16,968 nucleotides of DNA from an uncultured bacterium (GCA_964619725.1 CAZUFC010000161.1:1-16968), one strand, 5' to 3'. Counted from the stretch's first letter, positions 393-16,722 are shown. The notes: a model not told the origin generated them from the letters alone. Made by a program: numbers and translations.

Positions 393-715
393 TAATTTCA
401 AACATTCCTGCATTTTTATTCAAAAAAAGTTCGCCTTTCTTTTTCTTGAAATCAGCGGTGAAATTTTACAGAATTATATTTGGAAATTATCGATTATTCG
501 ATAAAATCCAAAGGAGATATGCCCATCGGTTCAATTCAAGTATACTTTTACGGTAAGGAAGCGCCGCCGAAAAGCTTCAAAATTCGGCCCAGGCAATATG
601 AACCACGGCATACTGAAAGAACACAATGATTTTCTTCACGGCAAGAGAATCGTCCTGCGGCGGCTGGAAGCAGCGTAAAGAATTCTGCCATGATGTAAGT
701 TAAGAGGTTCACCCG

Positions 716-3025
716 GTGAAAGCACGCATTTACCCGACCATAATGATTATGGGATTCAGCGGACTGGTTGCCGAGATACTTGTCCTCAGGGAACTTATGA
801 TCGTTTTTTCAGGGAACGAGTTCTCTATAGGCATTATTCTGGCCAACTGGCTCATTCTTGAAGCCTTCGGAAGCTTCTGCCTCGGCAGGAAGGCAGAGAA
901 ACCCCGAAACAGGCTTGAGATATTTGCGGTCATCACTATACTTTTTTCCCTGTCTTTACCCCTTGCAGTTCTTATGACGCGCATTCTGAAAAGAGTCATC
1001 GGCGTTTCCATCGGCGAAGGCATTGGATTTCTGCCCATGTTCTATACTTCATTTCTCATACTTTTGCCGGTGAGTGTGCTTCACGGAGCATTATTTACTT
1101 TCAGTTGCAGAATATTTTCCATGTTTTCCAGCGAGGACGAAACCTCGGCAGGCAGGGTATATGTGTATGAAACGGCGGGTACGATAGTCGGCGGAATTGT
1201 GTGCACCTGGTTCCTGATTCCCTATCTGAATACTTTTCAGGCATCCTTGTGGCTCGCCGTATTGAACTTTGCGGTATGCTTCGTTTTGCTGGCCCCTTAC
1301 TGGAAAACCGGAATGTTTCAAAGAGCAATGATGGTTTCCTTGAGCGCACTTATTTTATTTGCCGGTTATTTGTTTCTCGGCGGGTATGCGCACAGGCTGC
1401 ATGAATACTCAATTAAAGCGCAATGGAAGAACCAGAACGTCGTTCATTACCAGAACTCCCAATACGGCAATATCTGCGTCCTGGAAAACCAGGGTCAATA
1501 CATATTCTTTCTGGATGGAATTGCAAGCATCATTACGCCGATTCCGGATATACCTTTTGTTGAAGAATACGTCCATCTCCCGCTTCTTGCCCACCCGGAA
1601 CCCGCAAGACTCCTGATTTTGAGCGGCGGAGCAGGCGGCGTTATTTCTGAAGCGTTGAAACACCCGTCGATAGGCACAATCGAATATTCAGAACTTGATC
1701 CGCTGCTTCTGGACCTGTTGAGAAAATTCTCCACGCCGCTTTCCGAATCTGAGTTGAATGATGGAAGAGTAAAGATAAGAAATATTGACGGCCGACTGCT
1801 GCTAAAAACTACGCCCAACAAATACGATGCGATACTGGTAGGTATTCGGGAGCCGTCCAATCTACAGGCGAACAGGTTCTTCACTAAGGAGTTCTTCGCC
1901 CTGGCGAGAGAGAAACTGAATGACGACGGCATACTGACGCTGGCGCTGCCCGGTTCCCTGACCTACTCGAATGAAGAATTGAAGAACCTGAACAGTTGTA
2001 TTTTCAACACGCTGAAAAGAGTCTTTTCTCATATTAGAGTAATCCCCGGCGAAGGCAATAATCTTTTTCTCGCATCGGACTCCAGGGAAATATCAGAGAT
2101 AGACAGAGAACAGGTTATAGATAGACTGAATCATCGGAACCTTGAAACAGAAGTCGTCATTCCCTGGCGTATCGAGAATAAATTGCATCGAGGATGGCGG
2201 GACTGGTTTTCACGTTTTATTGAAGGAAGCAGTCAGAAGATCAATTCTGATTTCAAACCCATGGGACTGTTCTACAGCATCTCTCACTGGAATTCATTGT
2301 TTGCTGTTTCACTTCGCGGGCTTTTCAAACTGCTTGAAAAGATAGACTTGAAGATCATTGCCGTTCCGCTTGCTGTTCTGCTGTTCCTCCATTTCTTCCT
2401 GCGACCGAAAAAAAAACGATTATTCGGGACAGGCATACCCCTGTCAATCATCACGACAGGCTTTGCCGGAATGATATTCGACCTTATGTTGATTTTCGCA
2501 TTTCAGGCGATCTATGGATACGTATTCTCATGGATCGGACTTCTTGTGGCATTCTTCATGGCAGGGGCGGCTTGCGGGGCAATATTGACGACAAGGGTTG
2601 CAGCACGGACGAGAGACTGTCTCAGGTTATATAAAAGAATTGAACTGGCAATTGTCGTCTGGTCTTTTGGATGGCCGCTCATATTTCTCGCCGTCCATTC
2701 CTCGCCAGGCTCTCCAAGAGCATTTTTTCTTTCCAAGATGCTGTTTTTGATCATCTCCCTCATTTGCGGCCTTCTGGTGGGCGCTCAGTTCCCTCCGGCA
2801 AACAAGATATACCTGGAGAACCGCGCCGGCGTGAGCAGGACGGCCGGATTGCTTTACGCTTCGGACCTCCTGGGCGGGTGGTTAGGAGGAATTGCAGGCG
2901 CTGTTGCTCTTCTGCCTGTTCTGGGTTTTATCGGTACCGGCATAACAGTGGGAATGCTGAAATTGACAAGCTTCATCATCATGGCCGCCGGACCCGGACG
3001 GTATCCGGCAGGAGGTAAAACATGA
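716..3025 (+). CDS. Fused membrane protein / spermidine-synthase-like (class I SAM-binding fold) protein, 'fused MFS/spermidine synthase' type; probably not an active aminopropyltransferase
   Basis: 769-aa ORF with GTG start. Hydrophobic blocks at both ends (GFSGLVAEIL..., TGFAGMIFDL..., LYASDLLGG) flank a soluble domain with SpeE-like motifs SQYGNI, EEYVHLPLLAHPEP, LILSGGAGG, YSELDP, IDGR, YDAILVG and NRFFTKEFF. Confidence 0.85.
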   Translation: MKARIYPTIMIMGFSGLVAEILVLRELMIVFSGNEFSIGIILANWLILEAFGSFCLGRKAEKPRNRLEIFAVITILFSLSLPLAVLMTRILKRVIGVSIGEGIGFLPMFYTSFLILLPVSVLHGALFTFSCRIFSMFSSEDETSAGRVYVYETAGTIVGGIVCTWFLIPYLNTFQASLWLAVLNFAVCFVLLAPYWKTGMFQRAMMVSLSALILFAGYLFLGGYAHRLHEYSIKAQWKNQNVVHYQNSQYGNICVLENQGQYIFFLDGIASIITPIPDIPFVEEYVHLPLLAHPEPARLLILSGGAGGVISEALKHPSIGTIEYSELDPLLLDLLRKFSTPLSESELNDGRVKIRNIDGRLLLKTTPNKYDAILVGIREPSNLQANRFFTKEFFALAREKLNDDGILTLALPGSLTYSNEELKNLNSCIFNTLKRVFSHIRVIPGEGNNLFLASDSREISEIDREQVIDRLNHRNLETEVVIPWRIENKLHRGWRDWFSRFIEGSSQKINSDFKPMGLFYSISHWNSLFAVSLRGLFKLLEKIDLKIIAVPLAVLLFLHFFLRPKKKRLFGTGIPLSIITTGFAGMIFDLMLIFAFQAIYGYVFSWIGLLVAFFMAGAACGAILTTRVAARTRDCLRLYKRIELAIVVWSFGWPLIFLAVHSSPGSPRAFFLSKMLFLIISLICGLLVGAQFPPANKIYLENRAGVSRTAGLLYASDLLGGWLGGIAGAVALLPVLGFIGTGITVGMLKLTSFIIMAAGPGRYPAGGKT
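3010..3016 (+). promoter_or_regulatory. Shine-Dalgarno for the radical SAM gene; the ATGA start/stop overlap at 3022-3025 indicates translational coupling
   Basis: AGGAGGT lies 5 nt before ATG 3022. The upstream TGA stop (3023-3025) overlaps that ATG. Confidence 0.8.
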
Positions 3026-4122
3026 AAGATTATTTTCTAAAGAAATTTACAAGGAGAGATTTCCTGAAGGACGCGTCCAGACTGATTCTGGCAGCCGGTC
3101 TGCCTTCAATCTTCCTCGGATGCACCGTTAAAGAAGCGTCCGGAAATGAAACAAACGGCGCAGTCGAAAAAAACGGCAAGTCAACCCCAAGTTTTGTGCC
3201 GGCCTATCTGAAGCTTCACAAAACAGGTGAACTAAAAAAGCGGGTAAAGGAGCTCTGGGATATTATGGAAGCCTGCACCCTCTGTCCGAGGCAATGCAAC
3301 GTGAATCGCCTTGAAGGAGAGAAGGGTTTCTGCGGCGCTCCGGGCACAAAACTTTTCGTTTCAGCCTCTCATGCCCATTTCGGCGAAGAACGGCCGCTCG
3401 TTGGAAAAGGCGGTTCGGGAACGATCTTTCTCACTCATTGCAACCTGGGGTGCGTATTCTGTCAGAACTGGCAAATAAGCCGGCTCGGCATGGGCGAAAA
3501 AAACAGCATAGATGAACTGGCCGGCAAGATGCTTAGACTGCAAAAGTTGGGCTGTCACAATATAAATCTCGTAACCCCCACCCATTACTCCGCACATATC
3601 CTTAAGGCGCTTGACAAAGCAGCAGAAAAGGGGCTGCGGCTGCCGGTCGTTTACAACACTTCCGGCTGGGAGCGCCTGGAGATAGTCAAGCTCCTGGATG
3701 GAATAGTTGATGTCTACCTGCCTGATTTCAAATATTGGGACAGCGATATGTCGGATAAATATTCATCCGGAGCGGAAAGTTATCCTGACGCAACAAAACA
3801 GGCAATACTTGAGATGCATCGTCAGGTCGGTACGGCAAGTCCCGCGGAAGACGGCATTATCCGTAGAGGAATGATGATCAGACATCTGGTTATGCCGAAT
3901 AATACGGCAGGGTCCGAAAAGATAATGGAGTGGATTGCGGAAAATCTGCCGAAAGACACTTATGTCAACGTGATGGCGCAGTACAATCCGGCCTATAAAG
4001 CATTCGATTATCCGGATATATCAAGAAGAATTACTACCGCAGAATACAAAAAGGTAGTTAACAGTGCAAAGAAAGCCGGACTCACGAATCTCGACGTCCA
4101 GGCTTATTGGTGGTTGAAATGA
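3022..4122 (+). CDS. PflX-like radical SAM protein (pyruvate formate lyase activating enzyme-related) with an N-terminal twin-arginine lipoprotein-type signal
   Basis: CxxxCxxC motif CNLGCVFC (3439-3462), extra CTLCPRQC...GFC cluster, and motifs HFGEE, GSGTIF, GCHNINLVTPTH, YLPDFKY and IRHLVMP typical of PflX. N-terminus is TRRDFLK + hydrophobic stretch + FLGC. Confidence 0.88.
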   Translation: MKDYFLKKFTRRDFLKDASRLILAAGLPSIFLGCTVKEASGNETNGAVEKNGKSTPSFVPAYLKLHKTGELKKRVKELWDIMEACTLCPRQCNVNRLEGEKGFCGAPGTKLFVSASHAHFGEERPLVGKGGSGTIFLTHCNLGCVFCQNWQISRLGMGEKNSIDELAGKMLRLQKLGCHNINLVTPTHYSAHILKALDKAAEKGLRLPVVYNTSGWERLEIVKLLDGIVDVYLPDFKYWDSDMSDKYSSGAESYPDATKQAILEMHRQVGTASPAEDGIIRRGMMIRHLVMPNNTAGSEKIMEWIAENLPKDTYVNVMAQYNPAYKAFDYPDISRRITTAEYKKVVNSAKKAGLTNLDVQAYWWLK

Positions 4123-4239
4123 CAGACGCAGTTCATCCTCCGCCTTCATCATTACTCGTCTTCTCTGGATAGGCAATTCAGGGAATGATCAGACACAAAA
4201 ACATTAAAAAAGAAATTGAACTGCGGAATGGAGGAGCCC

Positions 4240-5085
4240 ATGTCAGTTGAAAACACACATCTCCTCGCCTACCTGACCTGGGACCGCGTGGCGCCCTGGA
4301 AAGTGATGGCGATGAAAGACCCGAACAAAAGGCTGTTTCCCTTTGCCTATGGATCGAGACAACGTATCTACTTCAAGAGGGCAATGGCAGGCGCCGTGCT
4401 TTGGGTGGCGACAGTCCCGCGTCTCGAAGTGGGAAAGAAGAGTGAGAGTAAAGGAAAGCAGGTGAAGAACTTCATTGCTATGCCGCCGACCCTGGTGGCC
4501 CGTCTAAAGATCAAAGCCTTCCTGTGTGAGCGATACGACTGTTTCAGGCAAGGGACTGGCCAGGAAGCCCGGAATCCCGGTGTCGCTGCTCTGCTGAAGC
4601 AATGGGGAGCGGTGGCGACCGCACGAGAGGAGGGCAGCGTGTTTTACGGGCCCAATGACGCGACGGGTTTCCTGAACAGCCTTGTCTTCCACAGCGCAAA
4701 GAAAGCGACAAGCCTGAAGCCGGATGAGAATCTTACCGAAAGCGAGCGATACATGAGCTATGCCTACAAACTCCAGAGTATTCGCCGCATCAATGTGGCC
4801 GAATCAAGTGGACGCTTTGACCTTGGTTCCTCGAATGTGCTGGGACAACAATCGGAACGGACCGTCTTCCTGAGTTACGTCCATAACGATAGTAGGAATT
4901 ACCCAGCGGAACTGGCGTGCGAACTCCAGAAACAAGGATGGAATCCGTGGTTCGACAGTCTGTCCATGCCCGGATACCGCACGTCAAGCTCCTTGCGAAG
5001 CTCCATCGGGAATAAGGAACGCACTCGAAGACTCGCAGGACTTATTGGCGCACCTTTGCGATTTTTCCCGAAAGTAGAGATATGA
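4240..5085 (+). CDS. Unknown N-terminal domain fused to a TIR domain that is cut short by a TGA; possible pseudogene
   Basis: ATG 4240 follows GGAGGAG (4230-4236) and is a better start than TTG 4216. RTVFLSYVHND...LACELQKQGWNPWFD (from 4858) is a classic TIR betaA-alphaA-betaB start, but only about 75 aa of TIR precede the stop. Confidence 0.65.
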   Translation: MSVENTHLLAYLTWDRVAPWKVMAMKDPNKRLFPFAYGSRQRIYFKRAMAGAVLWVATVPRLEVGKKSESKGKQVKNFIAMPPTLVARLKIKAFLCERYDCFRQGTGQEARNPGVAALLKQWGAVATAREEGSVFYGPNDATGFLNSLVFHSAKKATSLKPDENLTESERYMSYAYKLQSIRRINVAESSGRFDLGSSNVLGQQSERTVFLSYVHNDSRNYPAELACELQKQGWNPWFDSLSMPGYRTSSSLRSSIGNKERTRRLAGLIGAPLRFFPKVEI

Positions 5086-5126
5086 ACGGGCTTATCAACC
5101 GGATACTTTAAGGGTTGCTACGAGAA

Positions 5127-5687
5127 ATGGCAAAACGAGAATCTTGGAATCGGCGGAGTGCGCGTTGGAATCCCTTCTTTGTGTCTCTAGTTTGCGCAGC
5201 ACTCATCGTACTGAACTATCGGCGGGAACGTTGGCTCTATATTTTTCCCCTGGTCGTCTTGGGAAGCCATGCGACATCAGCCTTCGTTTTCTGGATGATT
5301 CGTCTGAGTAAGACCCGCAGTGAAGCATGGCGAAAAGCAGTCATTTCATTCGGGGTCGTATCGCAAGTTTTCGGTTTCGCTGGTCTTGCAAGCCTGGTTG
5401 TAATGCTGATCGACCTGATCATAATGCCCGGCCGGCTATCTGAACGCTTTGGCGAACCTGATGGGAAATTCTGGGTTCTATGGGCCTGGACCGCCATCGA
5501 GATCATTCATGCACATGTGTACAAAATCACCTTCGGTAAGCGCGATACGTTGGAATATGTCTTGAGGGAGCGTTGCTGGGCGGATGCAGCATGGCCGCTG
5601 GGGGGCGCCATCGGCCGGCAAATCAGCAAAGTCCGTCAGCAGCATGCCTCAGGATCGTGCGACACGCATCGCCCAGGAGGGGAATAA
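5127..5687 (+). CDS. Hypothetical integral membrane protein (about 4 TM helices)
   Basis: ORF with hydrophobic segments FFVSLVCAALIVL, LYIFPLVVLG...AFVFWMI, AVISFGVV...LVVMLIDLIIM and FWVLWAWTAIEII. Start could be ATG 5127 or TTG 5115. Confidence 0.6.
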   Translation: MAKRESWNRRSARWNPFFVSLVCAALIVLNYRRERWLYIFPLVVLGSHATSAFVFWMIRLSKTRSEAWRKAVISFGVVSQVFGFAGLASLVVMLIDLIIMPGRLSERFGEPDGKFWVLWAWTAIEIIHAHVYKITFGKRDTLEYVLRERCWADAAWPLGGAIGRQISKVRQQHASGSCDTHRPGGE

Positions 5688-8284: not shown

Positions 8285-10405
8285 TTAATGAGAAGATAGG
8301 TGTTTCCGCGGATTCGGGAGTTGAGCTCCGAGCGTTACGGTTAATATGACGATCAGTAGAGCGATTCCGGCGGCGTCTGAAGCGGGTACGGCGGCGGGTG
8401 TGGGTATGGTAGTAGGAGTCGGAGCAGGTGTAGGCGTGGTTGACGGTCTTAATCTAACGGTGCGGAAACCTATGGTGTGATCGCTGTATTGGGGTGAAAT
8501 GGAGTTTCTGAAAGCAGAGCGACAAATCATGGGAACATCGAACCAGCAGCCGCCGCGATAGATTTTATCCATGCCGGATTCGGGACCGGCGGGATCGACG
8601 ACAGGGCCCGGAGGATATGAGTCTAGCCAGTCCCAGACCCATTCCCATATATTTCCGTGCATATCATGCAGCAGCCAGTTGTTTTCCTGTTTCTGCATGA
8701 CGTCATGCGTTTGATCATCGGAATTGATCGTGTACCAGGCCAGGGGTGAGAGGTTGGCGTCGTATTCGTAGCAGGAGAGGTTGTCCAGTCCGTTGTTATA
8801 GGCAGTAGTTGTTCCGGCGCGACAAGCATATTCCCATTCTGATTCTGTAGGCAGCCGGTAACCCCCGGCATCCGTTTTCCAGTAGACTGTTCCTTCGGTC
8901 ACGGGGGGAATCCCGTCAAAGACCGTAGTGAATTCTGCATCTTCGTAATAACAGGGAGTTAAACTTTCGTTTTGGCTTATTCTGTTGCAGTAGATCACGG
9001 CATCATACCAGGTGATTCTCTCCACCGGTCTGTTATTGCCGGGAAAATAAGAAGGATTGTTTCCGAAGACGGACTGCCATTCAGCCTGCGTAACCTCGCA
9101 TTTTTTCATAAAAAAATCATTAGTCAGTATAACTTCATGAAGCGTTTCATTGTCGACGCGACACATCTCATCAACAGGTGAACCCATCATGTATTCGCCG
9201 GCGGGAATAATGACGTATCCTTCCGGCGTATAAGGCGTTTTTGTCGGAGTGGGAGAAGGTGAAGCCGATGTCGGCGCGGATGAAGGGGTGAATGTGGGCG
9301 TCGGCAGAGCGGCCTGCCATTGCAGGAAGGGATAATCAGCGCCCTCGTAAACGGCCCAGACAGCGCTGAAGTCCCACTGATCCAGCGGCGGATGGGCGCT
9401 GAAGTAAAAATAATCCGGTTCAGTATTGCTTGGATTAACTCCTGTGCAATCTGCTGTTCCCCCGTATTCGCTGACTCCGGCGCATTCCGTTTGCGTGGAT
9501 ATGTAGACATCCCAGCAGCAATTTGATACTAGCGCCCAGTTCCTGCCGATGATGCCGCCGGCCTGATTCGTGCTCCCCGTTATGGCGGACGCTGCGAAAC
9601 AGTTGTTAATCGAGGAATCATAATAGGACTGTCCTGCTATTCCCCCGATTCCATTCGCGCTTTCGTCGACGGTTACGCTTCCGATAGCGTAACAATCGGT
9701 TATTGTTCCCACGTTTTGACCTGTAAAACCGCCGAACGCCTGGCCTCCGCCTGCGGTTAAATCAACGTCTGCGTAACAATCGTTTATCGTGCCGTTGTTA
9801 ATCCCTGCCAGGCCGCCTGCGTAATTTCCAAAAAGGAGCAGAGAGAGTTCATCTGACGATCTCACGTCGCCTGTTACAAAACAATTGGAAATCGTTCCCC
9901 CATGACCGAAATCGCTTCTGCCGACCAAACCGCCGACATGGCTTCCGCCGGATATGTCGACGTCCGTCAGACCGACTCGACTGATCGTCGGGTCATGAAC
10001 AGAACCGAATAAACCTATGTCCTGTCTCGGCGCATGTATCCAAATGTATCCGTTCCATTCAGAATGCGTTCGATTGATATAAAGGTCCGATATGACGTGC
10101 TCGCCGCCGTCGAATACCCCGGTAAAACTGGCCGTGCTGGAATGACCGATCGGATCGAATCCCCGGTATTCTTCCCAGGTAATGTCCCAGTTCCAACCTG
10201 TGGTTTCAGAGCAATCAATATCGTTCATCAGCTCATAACAAGCCGACAGATCGTCCTCCATCTCCTGTAATTGAACGCATGACGTGATCTGGTAAGGATC
10301 CGACGGCGTGCCTGAACCTTCGCCGCTGAACGAAAGCGCCCTGAATGACGCTGATGCCGTAAAAATACATAATAAAATGACGGTTGAAATGCCTCTCATG
10401 GTCAA
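8285..10405 (-). CDS. Secreted surface protein: GLUG-repeat beta-helix, PT linker, FGE-sulfatase-fold (SUMF1/EgtB/PvdO family) domain, PT linker and C-terminal sorting tail
   Basis: Signal peptide; GSGTPSDPYQIT and VGGLVG/AGGLAG/IGGIAG repeats; FGE motifs IPAGEYMMGS, EVTQAEW, PVERITWYDA, YRLPTESEWEYACRAG, DMHGNIWEW and GFR; tail VPASDAAG + hydrophobic helix + RK. AAGGAGGT lies 5 nt before TTG 10405 (alternative start ATG 10399). Confidence 0.88.
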   Translation of the reverse strand: MTMRGISTVILLCIFTASASFRALSFSGEGSGTPSDPYQITSCVQLQEMEDDLSACYELMNDIDCSETTGWNWDITWEEYRGFDPIGHSSTASFTGVFDGGEHVISDLYINRTHSEWNGYIWIHAPRQDIGLFGSVHDPTISRVGLTDVDISGGSHVGGLVGRSDFGHGGTISNCFVTGDVRSSDELSLLLFGNYAGGLAGINNGTINDCYADVDLTAGGGQAFGGFTGQNVGTITDCYAIGSVTVDESANGIGGIAGQSYYDSSINNCFAASAITGSTNQAGGIIGRNWALVSNCCWDVYISTQTECAGVSEYGGTADCTGVNPSNTEPDYFYFSAHPPLDQWDFSAVWAVYEGADYPFLQWQAALPTPTFTPSSAPTSASPSPTPTKTPYTPEGYVIIPAGEYMMGSPVDEMCRVDNETLHEVILTNDFFMKKCEVTQAEWQSVFGNNPSYFPGNNRPVERITWYDAVIYCNRISQNESLTPCYYEDAEFTTVFDGIPPVTEGTVYWKTDAGGYRLPTESEWEYACRAGTTTAYNNGLDNLSCYEYDANLSPLAWYTINSDDQTHDVMQKQENNWLLHDMHGNIWEWVWDWLDSYPPGPVVDPAGPESGMDKIYRGGCWFDVPMICRSAFRNSISPQYSDHTIGFRTVRLRPSTTPTPAPTPTTIPTPAAVPASDAAGIALLIVILTVTLGAQLPNPRKHLSSH

Positions 10406-10776: not shown

Positions 10777-12378
10777 TTAAATCCTGGACTTCCGAAAATG
10801 TATAATACCGCTGAAAACAAGCATAAGAAAAATAAGAGCGCAAGATGAAAATGCAGGAACGGTCCGTGCGGGAGGATTAAAATAGTGCGCGCCCATATCA
10901 ACCTGTCCTGTATCTCTGTCGCCGAACGTATGCGTCGTTAAATCGCTCATGCAAATGTCGCCTTCCGGCATGGAGCAGGAAATGTTTTCGGCTAGGTCAT
11001 TGCCTGCGTTCAAACAGGGGCTGAAAGGTTCAGGTCCGTTTTCAGATTGGTACAAGTAATAATCTCCGTCAACTCCTCCAAGAAACGATGGATTCGCGTC
11101 TATCATTCCGTCGCCCCAATTCAGAGTGCATGACGGTTCGGTATAGGCGCCGCTTAATCCGCCCTCGACATTGCTGTAACTTATAGAAAGCTCAGTCACG
11201 TAACCGTATCGTTCTTTTATGCCGATTTCGTTTCCCTGGGCTGCAGAATTGCCCCACAAGATACAATTGATGATGTTGGGGTTCGAGTCGGTGACGCTGC
11301 CTACTCCGCCGGCGATATCAGCGGCAGAGTTACCCGTTAGCGTACAGTTAATTATGGCGGGAAGTCCCTGGTACATGAAGATACCGCCACCGTCGCCTCC
11401 TGATGTGTTTTCGAAAATGCAACAGTTTATAATTTCAGGAGAGGCGCCGGAACAGTGTATTCCTCCGGACCACCCTGTAGCGTAGTTTCCAAAAATAGAA
11501 CAGTTGAAGATCGTCGTATTATCCGAGGAGTAGTCTGCGATGCCGCCGCCGCAGCAGGATACCCAGTTTCCGGTTATGGTGCAATCTCTTATGAGAAGCG
11601 AAACGCCATTGGAGTCGATCCCTCCTCCCCAACCTTCGTATGCGCTGTTGCCGGTTATGGTGCAATGGCTTATCACGGGCCTGGTCTTACACATTTCCTC
11701 CGCACCCGCTATTCCTCCTCCCGATACGCTCGTGTTGTTCGATACCGTGCAATTATAGAGCACGGCCGAACCTGCTATGCATACGCCGCCGCCGATCCCA
11801 GCTTCATTCTCCGTTATAATGCTGTCGGTTATCAGGCAGGTATCCGTGCAATAGATTCCGCCGCCGACAGAATAATCATGATCCCTGTTTTCCGAAATGA
11901 TACAGTTTATCATCTTCGTGGAACCGCCGCAGTATGCCGCTCCGCCCAGTCCGCTTGAAGAAAACAATGTGTTGTCTGTAATTGTGCAGTTGTCGATGGT
12001 CGGCGAAGAAATCGAAAATATGCCCGCGCCGTTTTCGTCGACTCCTGATAGATAACCGTTTTTTATTGTGAAACCTCGAAGTACGGCCGCCTCGTCCTCA
12101 CCGCTTTGAAAAATAAAACCCCGTCCGCCGTTTTCACAATCTATTACGCAATCGGCAGGGCCGCTTTCAGACTCGACCACGATGGATTTTCCCCCGTAAT
12201 CCAGGTTACGGTTGTTCCCTCCACTATAAGTTCCATCGGCAACCAGTACGGTATCCCCGGATAATGCAGCATCTATCGCCTCCCGGATGCTGCCGTACGT
12301 CCCCGGGACATGAAGCACATCTGCATTCGCCGTCGCTAAAAACGACGACAAAACCAGCAAAATAAATATTTTTCCCAT
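10777..12378 (-). CDS. Secreted right-handed parallel beta-helix (pectin-lyase-like / Pmp-type GGGI repeat) surface protein with a C-terminal sorting tail
   Basis: Signal peptide ending ANA|D; VPGTYGSIREAIDAA...GDTVLVADGTY; many NCTITGN...GGGI repeats; SPCLNAG and VDMGAHY; tail VPAFS + hydrophobic helix + RKSR. RBS AAGGAGGAG at 12381-12389. Confidence 0.88.
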   Translation of the reverse strand: MGKIFILLVLSSFLATANADVLHVPGTYGSIREAIDAALSGDTVLVADGTYSGGNNRNLDYGGKSIVVESESGPADCVIDCENGGRGFIFQSGEDEAAVLRGFTIKNGYLSGVDENGAGIFSISSPTIDNCTITDNTLFSSSGLGGAAYCGGSTKMINCIISENRDHDYSVGGGIYCTDTCLITDSIITENEAGIGGGVCIAGSAVLYNCTVSNNTSVSGGGIAGAEEMCKTRPVISHCTITGNSAYEGWGGGIDSNGVSLLIRDCTITGNWVSCCGGGIADYSSDNTTIFNCSIFGNYATGWSGGIHCSGASPEIINCCIFENTSGGDGGGIFMYQGLPAIINCTLTGNSAADIAGGVGSVTDSNPNIINCILWGNSAAQGNEIGIKERYGYVTELSISYSNVEGGLSGAYTEPSCTLNWGDGMIDANPSFLGGVDGDYYLYQSENGPEPFSPCLNAGNDLAENISCSMPEGDICMSDLTTHTFGDRDTGQVDMGAHYFNPPARTVPAFSSCALIFLMLVFSGIIHFRKSRI

Positions 12379-13938: not shown

Positions 13939-14013
13939 GACGTTACGATGAATAGTCATCATTGCGCATATTTATCTGGTGAAAAAGGAAACGATTACGA
14001 ATCAGCGAGCGGA

Positions 14014-16722
14014 ATGAAGTACAGGTTGCCGCTAACGCTGCTGCTGTACCTGTACGCCGGACTCTTTATTATTCTTCAACTTTCAACTGCTTCACGGCAA
14101 TTCCCGATTACCCCGCAGAAGGACGTTTTTCATAAAAGCAAATCCTCAATGGAATCGAATGCCGATGTAAAAATTACATCTTCCATGGAGCGCTCCGGGG
14201 AATCTTATCAGGCCGAACGAAATCCAGGCGTAAGGATTACGAAGCCAATGGCGGGCAGCATAATTGAGGCTGAATTTTTGGAAGTGAAATTGAGCGGAAA
14301 TGCAAAGAAAGGAGAAATAAGCAAGTATCGTTGCGCCGTCAATGATCCGGATAAGTACAGAGAGGCGACCGGTAATGTTTTTTACTTCATTGTTCCGGAC
14401 GGAAATCTTAAAATATACGCTCAAGTCGTCGACGAGAGCGGCAATTCTTCAGATTGGGTCATGACGGAAATTGATTTTCTGCATGACGGCGCGCTGCGCA
14501 ATGCATACACGCTTAATTCCATCGATTATCAAATGGTGGAGATCAAACCCGGCGAATTCTGCATGGGCGTCGCCGGCCATCGTCGTCCGGTAAGATTAAC
14601 GAAATCCTTCTACATAGGTTCTAAGGAAGTGACTTGTCGTCAATGGATTAAGGTTATGGGGCGGAAGCCCTATCCTGTCAGGGGTGACGATTATCCGATT
14701 GTCAACGTAAGCTGGTTACAGGCGTTGACATTTTGCAATAAACTGACGGAAGCGGAAGGATTAAAGCCCTATTATTATATACTGGGCGATTATGTTGATT
14801 TTGATCCCTCTGCTGATGGGTATCGTCTTCCCACTCAACACGAATGGGAACATGCCTGTCGCGCTGGAAACACAATGATTTTACGTCAGGAAGATTGGGA
14901 AAACCGGAAACCTCAATGCGGAAATTGCGTTGATCGTTCATCAGACGACGAAGCAGGGGAGAATGTTCAATCAGATGAAAGAGCTGAAATAATGCCGGTC
15001 GGATCATTCAGGCCGAATTCCTGGGGACTGTTCGACATGCGGGGAAATGTGGAGGAATGGTGCTGGGGAATGGATGACATGACATATATGGACGTAACGG
15101 CATACAATCCATGTCCCGTGAAAATCGATCCTGATGAGCCGGCCAAAGGAAAACGAAGCCTCAGAAAAGGCGGAAGCTTCCGTGCAGCAGATTATTATAA
15201 CGAACCTTGTGCGCGTGAAAAGCCTTCTGACATCCATTACTATAGTCCAAGCCTGGGATTTCGAATTGCCGGATCAATTATTAACGGAGGCGATTCAGAA
15301 CCGTCCCCGGAAGGAACGAAAAAAGCGCTGATACCGGAGATACAATCAGGGATTACGCCTGAAGGTATAAGACCGACTCTGGAATTCGTGAAGACGCCGG
15401 CTGCCAGACTGAACTTGAGAGAATCGCAATGCATCGAATTCAGGTACAAAGGCTACAGTCCCAGGGGTATGGCGGATTACAGACGGCGTATGGACGACGG
15501 AAGAATAGTGGAAACAATGCGTTCAATCGTCCAATTCAGCAACCTGGAAACCGGGGATCACATCTTTTCAGTAACGGGACAGGACAGCGCCGGCGTTTAT
15601 TCCAGGCCGATATCTTTTCATTTCAGTATATTCAACGCTCCTCCCGAAGCGATAATAATCAGGCCGGAAAAGAACCAGTTCGTTGAAGACGTCAGGCTGG
15701 AAGTAACAGTTTCCGGAATCGACGACGGCAATAAAATCGCAGCCTACAGATGCGCCCTTAATACGATGGAAGTCTATACGGAACAATCCACCGGAGTTTT
15801 TCATTTTAAGGCAGAAGATGGAGACAACGCCGTTTACGCTCAGGTCATAGACGATGCCGGGAACGAATCGCCGTGGACGTCATGCCGTATCAGGTTCAAA
15901 AATGCCGGGACCCCCGGCGGAATACATACGATCAGGTCAATAGTCTACGAAATGGCGAGGATCGATCCCGGTAAGTTTTTAATGGGCAGTCCGCCGGAAG
16001 AAACAGACAGGATGGCTGACGAGAAACAACACATGGTCGCCGTTACAACGCCTTTTTATATGGGAGTGACCGAGGTCGCGCAAGCTCAATGGATGACCAT
16101 TATGGAGGACAATCCGAGTTTTTTTGTAAAAGAGGAATATCCTGTGGACAGCGTGAGTTGGTCGAATGCCGTGAAATTCTGCAACAAACTTTCGGAAATA
16201 GAAGGACTGATTCCAGTCTATTCCATCTCCAGGGATAAAGTAATCTGGAACCAAAACGCCGACGGTTACAGACTTCCTACGGAGGCTGAATGGGAGTATT
16301 CCTGCCGCGCCGGCTCCAGCACAAAGTTCTGCTTCGGCGACGCGGAGAAAAAACTTCACAAATACGGAAATTACTGCAGCAAATCATGCGAATACAGATG
16401 GAAAAAAACAGAGTATGACGATGCGTATTACGGCGTATCTCCAGTTAAATCTTTCAAGCCGAACAAATGGGGACTGTTCGACATGCACGGAAACGTATGG
16501 GAATGGTGCTGGGATTGGAAAGGCCCCTATCCGTCCGGACCGGCTTCCGATCCCGTCGGCCCGCCGAAAGGTTTTTTCCGCATCAGAAGAGGAGGCAGTT
16601 GGTTCAACATGCCTGAACACTGTAGATCAGCATTTCGAGGAAGCCTGAAACCTGACGCCAGGTATTACATTCAAGGATTCCGCCTGGCAAAAAACGGGAC
16701 TGATCAAAAAAGCCTCTTTTGA
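14014..16722 (+). CDS. Exported protein with a tandem duplication of (Ig-like domain + FGE-sulfatase-fold domain), separated by a further Ig/Y_Y_Y-like domain
   Basis: The ORF opens at 13948, but ATG 14014 gives a proper signal/anchor (MKYRLPLTLLLYLYAGLFIIL). Two FGE domains (YRLPTQHEWEHACRAG/DMRGNVEEW and YRLPTEAEWEYSCRAG/DMHGNVWEW) are each preceded by a YRCA-N...YAQV-D--GN-S-W module. Confidence 0.85.
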   Translation: MKYRLPLTLLLYLYAGLFIILQLSTASRQFPITPQKDVFHKSKSSMESNADVKITSSMERSGESYQAERNPGVRITKPMAGSIIEAEFLEVKLSGNAKKGEISKYRCAVNDPDKYREATGNVFYFIVPDGNLKIYAQVVDESGNSSDWVMTEIDFLHDGALRNAYTLNSIDYQMVEIKPGEFCMGVAGHRRPVRLTKSFYIGSKEVTCRQWIKVMGRKPYPVRGDDYPIVNVSWLQALTFCNKLTEAEGLKPYYYILGDYVDFDPSADGYRLPTQHEWEHACRAGNTMILRQEDWENRKPQCGNCVDRSSDDEAGENVQSDERAEIMPVGSFRPNSWGLFDMRGNVEEWCWGMDDMTYMDVTAYNPCPVKIDPDEPAKGKRSLRKGGSFRAADYYNEPCAREKPSDIHYYSPSLGFRIAGSIINGGDSEPSPEGTKKALIPEIQSGITPEGIRPTLEFVKTPAARLNLRESQCIEFRYKGYSPRGMADYRRRMDDGRIVETMRSIVQFSNLETGDHIFSVTGQDSAGVYSRPISFHFSIFNAPPEAIIIRPEKNQFVEDVRLEVTVSGIDDGNKIAAYRCALNTMEVYTEQSTGVFHFKAEDGDNAVYAQVIDDAGNESPWTSCRIRFKNAGTPGGIHTIRSIVYEMARIDPGKFLMGSPPEETDRMADEKQHMVAVTTPFYMGVTEVAQAQWMTIMEDNPSFFVKEEYPVDSVSWSNAVKFCNKLSEIEGLIPVYSISRDKVIWNQNADGYRLPTEAEWEYSCRAGSSTKFCFGDAEKKLHKYGNYCSKSCEYRWKKTEYDDAYYGVSPVKSFKPNKWGLFDMHGNVWEWCWDWKGPYPSGPASDPVGPPKGFFRIRRGGSWFNMPEHCRSAFRGSLKPDARYYIQGFRLAKNGTDQKSLF

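Follow-up and report, generated by a model that had tools for sequence, protein, structure and literature searches.

Radical S-adenosylmethionine (SAM) enzymes are treated as cytoplasmic, and they need both SAM and a strong reductant. A stretch of 16,968 nucleotides from an uncultured bacterium (GCA_964619725.1 CAZUFC010000161.1:1-16968, hereafter the window) raises the question of whether an enzyme of this kind could work on the other side of the cytoplasmic membrane. Between positions 716 and 4122 the window carries two overlapping genes, the first coding for a polytopic membrane protein (P0001) with a soluble domain of the SpeE (spermidine synthase) fold, and the second for a PflX-type radical SAM enzyme (P0002) that starts with a leader of the kind recognised by the Tat (twin-arginine translocation) pathway. 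We interpret the pair as a mobile, self-contained two-gene module for SAM-dependent chemistry at the outer face of the cytoplasmic membrane, with a probability of roughly 0.5. Computation showed that the genes are paired and diverge together, that the leader is conserved and co-varies with TatC, and which motif pattern is present; these results are given below together with the alternatives on which each of them bears.

Conservation of the gene pair

The preliminary description of the locus, made from the sequence, had named a PflX-like enzyme coupled through an ATGA overlap to a large protein with multiple transmembrane helices and a central SpeE-fold domain, and the open reading frames (ORFs) recovered here agree with it (Table 1). 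The start of P0001 coincides with that of 22 orthologues, and the gap between the two genes ranges from -1 to about 140 nt in most of the related loci. Conservation of the arrangement was followed in a set of 80 metagenome loci seeded with the membrane protein, of which 59 (near-duplicates included) were assessable and had a partner at least 49% identical. The enzyme gene was located directly downstream of the partner in 57 of these 59 loci, always in the same order, with a start/stop overlap or short gaps, in at least eight phyla, and its leader contained the arginine pair (RR) in 55 cases, RK in one and an RR-less anchor in another one. Below 49% identity of the partner, the enzyme was adjacent in only one of 10 assessable loci. 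A third sample, consisting of 201 genomes of the order around a Desulfobacterales match, contained a PflX-like gene in 151 genomes and the partner (E ≤ 1e-100) in 10, in nine of which it was placed immediately upstream of a leader-bearing enzyme. The claim that the two genes are conserved neighbours is thus borne out by both samples.

The second set, 80 genome loci seeded with the enzyme, allowed us to compare leader types. An RR leader was present in 46 loci, with the partner adjacent in 24 and an 83-residue remnant of it in one more (L019); a degenerate RR occurred once, with no adjacent partner; RR-less hydrophobic leaders were found in five loci, all of them with the partner; and 21 loci had a leaderless enzyme, with the partner adjacent (downstream) in a single case, L040. 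The N-terminus was cut or masked in the remaining seven, of which the masked one (L056) had an adjacent partner, while the other six started at a contig edge. The preliminary description had asked whether Tat-bearing PflX homologues co-occur with the membrane family more than Tat-less ones; between RR-leader and leaderless enzymes the count was 24/46 vs. 1/21.

Over 64 loci, the two proteins co-vary in pairwise identity (r = 0.82; Mantel, 0 of 999), and members of Chloroflexota, Thermodesulfobacteriota, Nitrospirota, Spirochaetota, Thermotogota, Zixibacteria and others are intermingled in the enzyme tree, so the pair moves as a unit. No such orthologue was present in any other genome of the window's own small phylum (14 genomes). 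Two loci contain decay products of the two-gene module, namely a Tat leader with lipobox left stranded behind the membrane gene, in a locus where the enzyme is missing (L150, about 3110-3400; an exception to the order described above), and, on a complete Zixibacteria chromosome, an intact enzyme preceded by a remnant of the membrane gene, 83 residues from its C-terminal end (L019:4732-4980). No third conserved gene was identified in 88 pair loci; the only recurrent extra 'ORF' was considered and rejected, being an antisense shadow inside the enzyme gene.

Tight packing and a shared, export-related expression could also hold together two genes that are functionally independent. The partner paralogues that stand alone in most order-sample genomes would fit such a co-transfer, as would the leader-bearing enzymes found without a partner; the fixed order and close spacing over at least eight phyla, the co-varying identities and the side-by-side position of distant paralogues from the two families do not, and we consider mere co-transfer very improbable.

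Distant partner paralogues were also observed beside AmrS-like radical SAM genes with Tat-type or hydrophobic leaders. In one such locus (L175:1837-7961) a 45% identical partner has one enzyme with an S-R-R leader upstream and two enzymes with hydrophobic anchors downstream, and in another (L193:1640-5021) a 28% identical partner accompanies an enzyme with the leader T-R-K-E-F-L-K. An ordinary MFS_1 gene adjoins Tat-leader PflX enzymes that have no partner in four loci of three unrelated kinds (L071:6080-7315 and L073:4605-5858, both from Treponema, the latter with tatC 1.3 kb away on the other strand; L198:3998-5194, overlapping and upstream; L201:1570-2841). These loci are leads towards a tendency of the exported enzyme to travel with a transporter-like protein. 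In two Acidobacteriota loci (L061 and L067), a gene for a UbiD-family decarboxylase lies divergently upstream of the leader-bearing enzyme.

The enzyme, its leader and the Tat machinery

P0002 starts with MKDYFLKKFTRRDFLK. Next come 13 uncharged residues (L21-G33), then Cys34 and a low-complexity linker of 23 residues, and the conserved core begins at about residue 58. Tat signals share the consensus S/T-R-R-x-F-L-K and a moderately hydrophobic stretch after it, both of which are present in P0002 (T10-R-R-D-F-L-K16 and L21-G33). When P0002 was compared with its 119 best homologues (n = 120, 67-80% identical, from many phyla), the RR pair was kept in all 120 sequences and a [ST]RRxFLK-like string in 106; R11 and R12 were also invariant in an alignment of 44 sequences. 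The conservation of this leader, in which the preliminary description had already seen a twin-arginine motif, is far beyond chance.

The same description had regarded P0002 as a lipoprotein, a reading which may apply to this protein and does not extend to its family. The lipobox pattern at the end of a signal is [LVI][ASTVI][GAS]C; the F-L-G-C34 of P0002 agrees with a loose PROSITE-type pattern and misses the strict one, and a lipobox-like Cys was found in 50 of the 120 sequences with the loose pattern and in five with the strict one. As Lgt and LspA are both present in the window's genome, lipidation of Cys34 is plausible there, and, judging from these patterns, the lipoprotein reading would be particular to P0002 and is not a trait of the enzyme family.

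An in-frame GTG (Val59, 3196-3198) lies exactly where the leaderless relatives begin, and translation from it would yield an ordinary cytoplasmic PflX enzyme preceded by an untranslated 'leader'. This codon has no Shine-Dalgarno sequence before it, while the ATG has a perfect AGGAGG and the ATGA overlap, and across phyla the leader varies synonymously while its protein sequence is conserved. Because of this conservation at the protein level Val59 was rejected as the start, which places the true start upstream of the signal, as proposed earlier, and leaves the shorter enzyme with next to no weight.

The catalytic part of P0002 matches the Pfam model Radical_SAM (PF04055) over residues 135-248 (43.8 bits, cut-off 29.5). 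Narrower models stayed below their cut-offs: AmrS (TIGR04337) was the best NCBIfam match with 34.7 bits (cut-off 220), TIGR02495 scored 26.9 bits (cut-off 131.15) and the pyruvate formate-lyase (PFL) activating enzyme TIGR02493 15.5 bits (cut-off 231.75), and the matches to NrdG and PFL activating enzyme models were weak and sub-threshold. The homologue search scored more than 8000 homologues, and 'putative pyruvate formate lyase activating enzyme' is the kind of name that JGI gives to homologues. A sequence search of the PDB with P0002 returned no solved relative. Searches of Protein Atlas gave only own-family clusters, and PADLOC yielded only weak fold-level matches. Besides the radical SAM [4Fe-4S] motif, P0002 has an N-terminal motif of four cysteines (Table 1), which is also kept in leaderless and RR-less relatives and probably forms a second, auxiliary iron-sulfur (Fe-S) site. 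A leaderless PflX paralogue (49% identical) is encoded in the window's own genome (L002, contig C12) and in a genome of the same phylum (L008); in both it follows genes for a SAM hydroxide adenosyltransferase (SAM_HAT/DUF62) and a TPR protein, and this trio may be a conserved cytoplasmic set linking PflX enzymes with SAM cleavage.

TatC was searched in the genomes in order to relate the type of leader to the export machinery. It was detected in the window's genome (251.9 bits, contig C54) and altogether in nine of the 10 RR-leader genomes (the window's own, 5/5 and 3/4), compared with one of five genomes with an RR-less, partner-linked enzyme (two Thermotogaceae, two spirochaetes and one bacterium of the Planctomycetes-Verrucomicrobia-Chlamydiae, PVC, group). 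A Fisher test gave p = 0.017, a value that overstates the link because the genomes include relatives, which are not independent, as well as unassessed metagenome-assembled genomes. In the control genome of Thermotoga maritima, Lgt was found and TatC was not. A 'KRR' in one Thermotogaceae locus (L036) was rejected as a twin-arginine motif, as these codons form the Shine-Dalgarno sequence of a gene that starts at the following GTG.

Leader hydropathy, taken as the best 12-residue Kyte-Doolittle mean, was higher in RR-less leaders (2.15-3.45) than in the 120 RR leaders (1.91 ± 0.25, maximum 2.50), and the value of P0002 is typical of the RR group. Signals for the Sec pathway are more hydrophobic than Tat signals, so the difference between RR-less and RR leaders is in the expected direction. 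The charge distribution of every leader, the RR-less ones included, predicts that the N-terminus stays inside and the C-terminus outside. When 80 enzyme cores were placed in a maximum-likelihood tree, one branch with a support of 93 (Shimodaira-Hasegawa-like approximate likelihood ratio test, SH-aLRT) separated all 58 rows that are leader-bearing, cut or masked from the 22 leaderless rows without partner. The leader of this family has one origin, and within the tree RR was exchanged for a hydrophobic leader about three times. We read it as a functional Tat signal that was remodelled where Tat is missing, and the Tat assignment made beforehand gains from the co-variation with TatC.

The membrane partner and the proposed outer-face module

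The soluble domain of P0001 matches Spermine_synth (PF01564; residues 284-443, 87.2 bits, cut-off 22.9), and a larger part of the protein matches the 'fused MFS/spermidine synthase' model NF037959 (residues 39-442, 51.2 bits, cut-off 40), the first half of the name standing for the major facilitator superfamily (MFS). The spermidine synthase equivalogs all remained below their cut-offs (PRK03612, 174.8 vs. 472; PRK00811, 110.8 vs. 260; TIGR00417, 107.6 vs. 249.55), although P0001 aligns to 25 solved spermidine synthases and aminopropyltransferases, with a best E-value of 1.4e-22 (such as 1iy9, SpeE of Bacillus subtilis). Residues G305, G307, G308, E326, D358 and D371 do not vary among 23 orthologues, and the conservation of A306 reaches at least 90%; the motif-I acid that A306 replaces was absent from 13 of 13 membrane-fused relatives and kept in three soluble SpeE-like genes. 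In aminopropyltransferases the first Asp of D-S-T-(D/E)-P is catalytic, and P0001 has Gly376 at this position. Judging from these residues, the domain retains the adenosyl-binding motifs, its pattern is best explained by continued binding of an adenosyl ligand, and the missing motif-I acid points to SAM, and not decarboxylated SAM, as this ligand; by the same sequence criteria it cannot be an aminopropyltransferase. The earlier label 'SpeE-like' therefore holds for the fold and the adenosyl-binding motifs, and is overstated in that both aminopropyltransferase acids are replaced (A306, G376). The C-terminal extension of the domain gave nothing in Pfam. At least five more open frames (534-898 aa, 25-31% identical) for SpeE-like paralogues fused to membrane parts were observed on other contigs of the window's genome (C66, C69, C82, C285 and C201), and none of them shares its contig with a PflX-like gene.

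Topology was predicted from mean hydropathy and from the lysine and arginine (K/R) content of the loops over 23 orthologues. Loops 55-67, 129-150, 565-574, 628-637 and 693-719 have on average 2.1-3.8 K/R each (2.6 in loop 565-574), and loops 31-37, 172-175, 599-603 and 663-666 have about zero. Residues 515-537 stay below the helix threshold, which leaves a single helix between the soluble domain and the K/R-rich loop 565-574. An internal repeat was detected, in that residues 2-172 align with residues 565-738 (24% identity, E = 4e-6), and the scaffold accordingly looks like two parallel six-helix repeats, as in MFS-type transporters, between which the soluble domain would be carried by two extra helices, TM7 and TM8. 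When the positive-inside rule is applied to the K/R-rich loops, the soluble domain is predicted to face outward. The SAM-binding fold that had been ascribed to the membrane protein was recovered, with its adenosyl-binding motifs kept and in a predicted outward position.

A membrane-bound, outward SAM-dependent domain could also have the enzyme as its substrate. NHMT (AN4663), a fungal N-terminal histidine methyltransferase of 558 aa, is described in the available part of its preprint (bioRxiv 10.1101/2022.10.03.510680) as being located in the endoplasmic reticulum and methylating the new N-terminus of secreted proteins, and P0001 may be a similar methyltransferase which modifies the exported radical SAM protein, for instance after cleavage of the leader, and supplies nothing to it. 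A module of exactly two genes, with no third conserved gene, and the co-divergence of both would suit such a client relationship. The residues after the leader (Cys34 and the linker) are, however, poorly conserved, so that no conserved target site is visible, and many leader-bearing enzymes occur without the partner; this makes the enzyme an improbable client.

For the outer-face module itself we envisage the following course. The radical SAM enzyme would fold and receive its Fe-S clusters in the cytoplasm and then be exported by the Tat pathway through its T-R-R-x-F-L-K leader. In the window's genome, lipidation of Cys34 would probably keep it at the membrane, while other lineages may rely on cleavage by signal peptidase or on an uncleaved leader. 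P0001, with its two putative six-helix repeats, would carry the SpeE-fold domain outside by means of the two extra helices, and its membrane domain may transport SAM to the other side, or else a substrate or product; the preliminary description had envisaged that the partner may export SAM or return 5'-deoxyadenosine. Both proteins would share one substrate, of the envelope or extracellular, which is not encoded in the module. What we infer here is export, the outward orientation, a physical or functional cooperation of the two proteins, the supply of SAM and an electron donor.

A number of observations weigh against this module. The topology of P0001 is a prediction from hydropathy and the positive-inside rule, and Pfam assigned both membrane halves to no family, with no match to any MFS model, including MFS_1, even at E ≤ 10; 'MFS-like' for this reason describes the architecture only. 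The lipobox of the enzyme leader is not conserved. The module as proposed names no extracytoplasmic source of SAM or of low-potential electrons. The partner is absent from 21 of the 46 RR-bearing loci of the genome set and from all 11 further RR-leader enzymes that were retrieved from the order sample, and the complete Zixibacteria chromosome has only the 83-residue remnant and a 28% identical paralogue. A distant 700-aa paralogue was present in 8/11 genomes without a leader-bearing enzyme vs. 10-11/11 genomes with one, and a general link of leader-bearing enzymes to any distant partner paralogue was rejected on account of these controls. Because many leader-bearing enzymes have no partner, P0001 cannot be the general SAM supplier of exported PflX enzymes, and it is at most the supplier or co-enzyme of this subclade only. 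The coupling of enzyme and partner suggested in the preliminary description consequently stands as far as the neighbourhood is concerned, and not as a need of all such enzymes.

The remaining points against it concern the side of the membrane on which catalysis takes place. The RR-less enzymes keep all seven cysteines, though TatC was not detected in four of the five genomes concerned, and L040, a partner-linked enzyme, is leaderless in a genome that has TatC. We know of no precedent for the export of an Fe-S enzyme by Sec. As no TatC was detected in four of five genomes, the Fe-S cysteines are kept and no such precedent is known to us, the RR-less enzymes, and perhaps then all of them, may be placed at the cytoplasmic face. 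The leader would in that case only anchor or recruit the enzyme to its membrane partner, catalysis would proceed inside, where SAM and the low-potential donor needed by radical SAM enzymes are available, and RR would be a relic, for which the vestigial Tat motif of NarG is a model. The more hydrophobic leaders of the five RR-less, partner-linked enzymes would agree with such a tether. A relic, on the other hand, would neither keep the consensus in 106 and the RR pair in 120 of 120 sequences nor track TatC, the leader charges predict a C-terminus outside even where RR is missing, a stable anchor would need a longer stretch than the 13 uncharged residues and the soluble domain of the partner is predicted on the opposite side. 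We therefore regard a cytoplasmic-face tether as unlikely, and our confidence in the outer-face module stays near one half mainly because the maturation of an Fe-S enzyme after Sec export is unexplained.

A more specific form of the outer-face module, according to which P0002 represents the first radical SAM family working outside the cytoplasm, with a dedicated membrane protein serving it by bringing SAM to the outer face and presenting it there, is put forward tentatively, at somewhat less than even odds. If true, anaerobes of many phyla would export SAM and supply the periplasm with low-potential electrons for radical chemistry, which would be used on envelope or extracellular substrates. 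An invariant leader that tracks TatC, next to a membrane protein with a predicted outward SAM-type domain, challenges the assumption that such enzymes are confined to the cytoplasm.

Table 1. Features of the module and of the neighbouring genes in the window (positions counted from the first nucleotide of the window; TM, transmembrane helix)
Feature	Position	Strand	Remarks
AAGAGG, Shine-Dalgarno-like	702-707	+	8 nt upstream of the P0001 start codon (GTG); read from the sequence
Membrane-protein gene (P0001)	716-3025	+	GTG start; 769 aa, polytopic, hydrophobic; 'fused MFS/spermidine synthase' type
P0001 residues 1-223, TM1-7 (predicted)	716-1384	+	TM1-6 are repeat 1, TM7 takes the chain outward; hydropathy and K/R over 23 orthologues
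P0001 residues 224-541, soluble SpeE-fold domain (class I SAM-binding type)	1385-2338	+	predicted outside the cytoplasm
Motif I, S303-G-G-A306-G-G308	1622-1639	+	Ala in place of the Asp/Glu of GxG(D/E)G; alignment to 1iy9
Gly376	1841-1843	+	at the first Asp of D-S-T-(D/E)-P; alignment to 1iy9; invariant in 23 orthologues
P0001 residues 545-562, TM8 (predicted)	2348-2401	+	chain back to the cytoplasmic side; hydropathy; K/R-rich loop after it
P0001 residues 563-769, TM9-14 (predicted)	2402-3022	+	repeat 2; hydropathy, internal repeat
AGGAGG, Shine-Dalgarno	3010-3015	+	6 nt before the radical SAM ATG, within the end of the upstream gene
ATGA start/stop overlap	3022-3025	+	enzyme ATG 3022-3024, upstream TGA 3023-3025; translational coupling
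PflX-type radical SAM enzyme gene (P0002)	3022-4122	+	ORF, 366 aa
P0002 residues 1-34, twin-arginine leader	3022-3123	+	T10-R11-R12-D-F-L-K16, uncharged L21-G33, Cys34 in F-L-G-C
P0002 residues 35-57, low-complexity linker	3124-3192	+	length varies among homologues; Pro/Thr-rich repeats in some Anaerolineales versions
Cys85-x2-Cys88-x3-Cys92 ... Cys104	3274-3333	+	four cysteines, invariant in 44 sequences
Cys140-x3-Cys144-x2-Cys147	3439-3462	+	radical SAM [4Fe-4S] motif, invariant in 44 sequences
289-aa ORF	4216-5085	+	directly 3' of the module; weak C-terminal TIR-like match (Pfam TIR_2 23.3 bits, below cut-off 28; PADLOC PDC-S66, E 1e-5)
190-aa ORF	5115-5687	+	weak 8xMP membrane-protein match
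Large predicted surface/exported protein	8285-10405	-	
Large predicted surface/exported protein	10777-12378	-	
Large predicted surface/exported protein	13948-16722	+	

The two ORFs downstream of the module could be a small defence-type pair, and they are not conserved beside the module elsewhere. One of the three large surface or exported proteins has GLUG repeats and an FGE-sulfatase domain, another is beta-helix/NosD-like, and the third, with 924 aa, has two FGE-sulfatase (GldK-like) regions. Over the whole window, the Rfam scan revealed no riboswitch or other RNA family, the promoter and terminator scan nothing convincing and the composition profile no island signature.

Comparison with known systems

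A limited literature search returned no report of an exported radical SAM enzyme, of the function of PflX or of bacterial membrane-fused SpeE-like proteins, and the parts available of PMC10924467 and its preprint, of PMC13020158 and of bioRxiv 10.64898/2026.07.15.738315 had no bearing on the question of exported radical SAM enzymes. The module gives an initial functional foothold in the PflX-like enzymes and in the 'fused MFS/spermidine synthase' proteins, both of them very large families that are uncharacterised.

With respect to its leader, P0002 resembles Fe-S proteins that Tat exports or anchors, for example Rieske proteins and the small subunits of hydrogenases, which have the same S/T-R-R-x-F-L-K leader, and its genome has TatC; to our knowledge, none of the Tat-exported Fe-S proteins is a radical SAM enzyme. 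As an enzyme it stands closest to what we take to be its nearest known group, PflA and the PflX-like proteins (COG1313), with which it shares the radical SAM core and the Cx3Cx2C motif. It differs from PflA in the additional N-terminal four-cysteine motif and in the Tat leader, and no gene for a glycyl-radical enzyme is found near P0002. AmrS is a further point of comparison, since leader-bearing AmrS-like enzymes adjoin distant partner paralogues; unlike in AmrS, no AMMECR1 or Memo gene is present in the window.

P0001 has the fold and the adenosyl-binding motifs in common with spermidine synthase SpeE, including the membrane-bound type represented by PRK03612. It differs from these enzymes in that A306 replaces the Asp/Glu which excludes the carboxylate of SAM, and G376 the acid of D-S-T-(D/E)-P.

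The closest characterised analogue suggested by the comparison is NHMT. In the portion of the preprint at hand (bioRxiv 10.1101/2022.10.03.510680), this protein is described as consisting of a seven-helix domain followed by a domain automatically annotated as spermidine synthase, as working on secreted proteins from the exoplasmic side, and as losing its function without the membrane region; the same source gives the Asp/Glu of GxG(D/E)G as the rule for spermidine synthases, and in NHMT it is replaced by Ile while the SAM-binding Glu is present. As far as can be compared by description only, NHMT and P0001 share a multi-helix membrane part, a SpeE-fold domain, a non-acidic residue in motif I and the kept Glu (E326 in P0001). 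P0001 differs in being bacterial and not eukaryotic, in its 14 predicted helices, in the position of the domain in the middle of the protein and in its radical SAM partner. The analogy suggests that P0001 may be an outward SAM-dependent transferase and not a polyamine synthase. By extension, the 'fused MFS/spermidine synthase' proteins may be bacterial counterparts of NHMT rather than polyamine synthases, and their automatic names are for this reason probably wrong.

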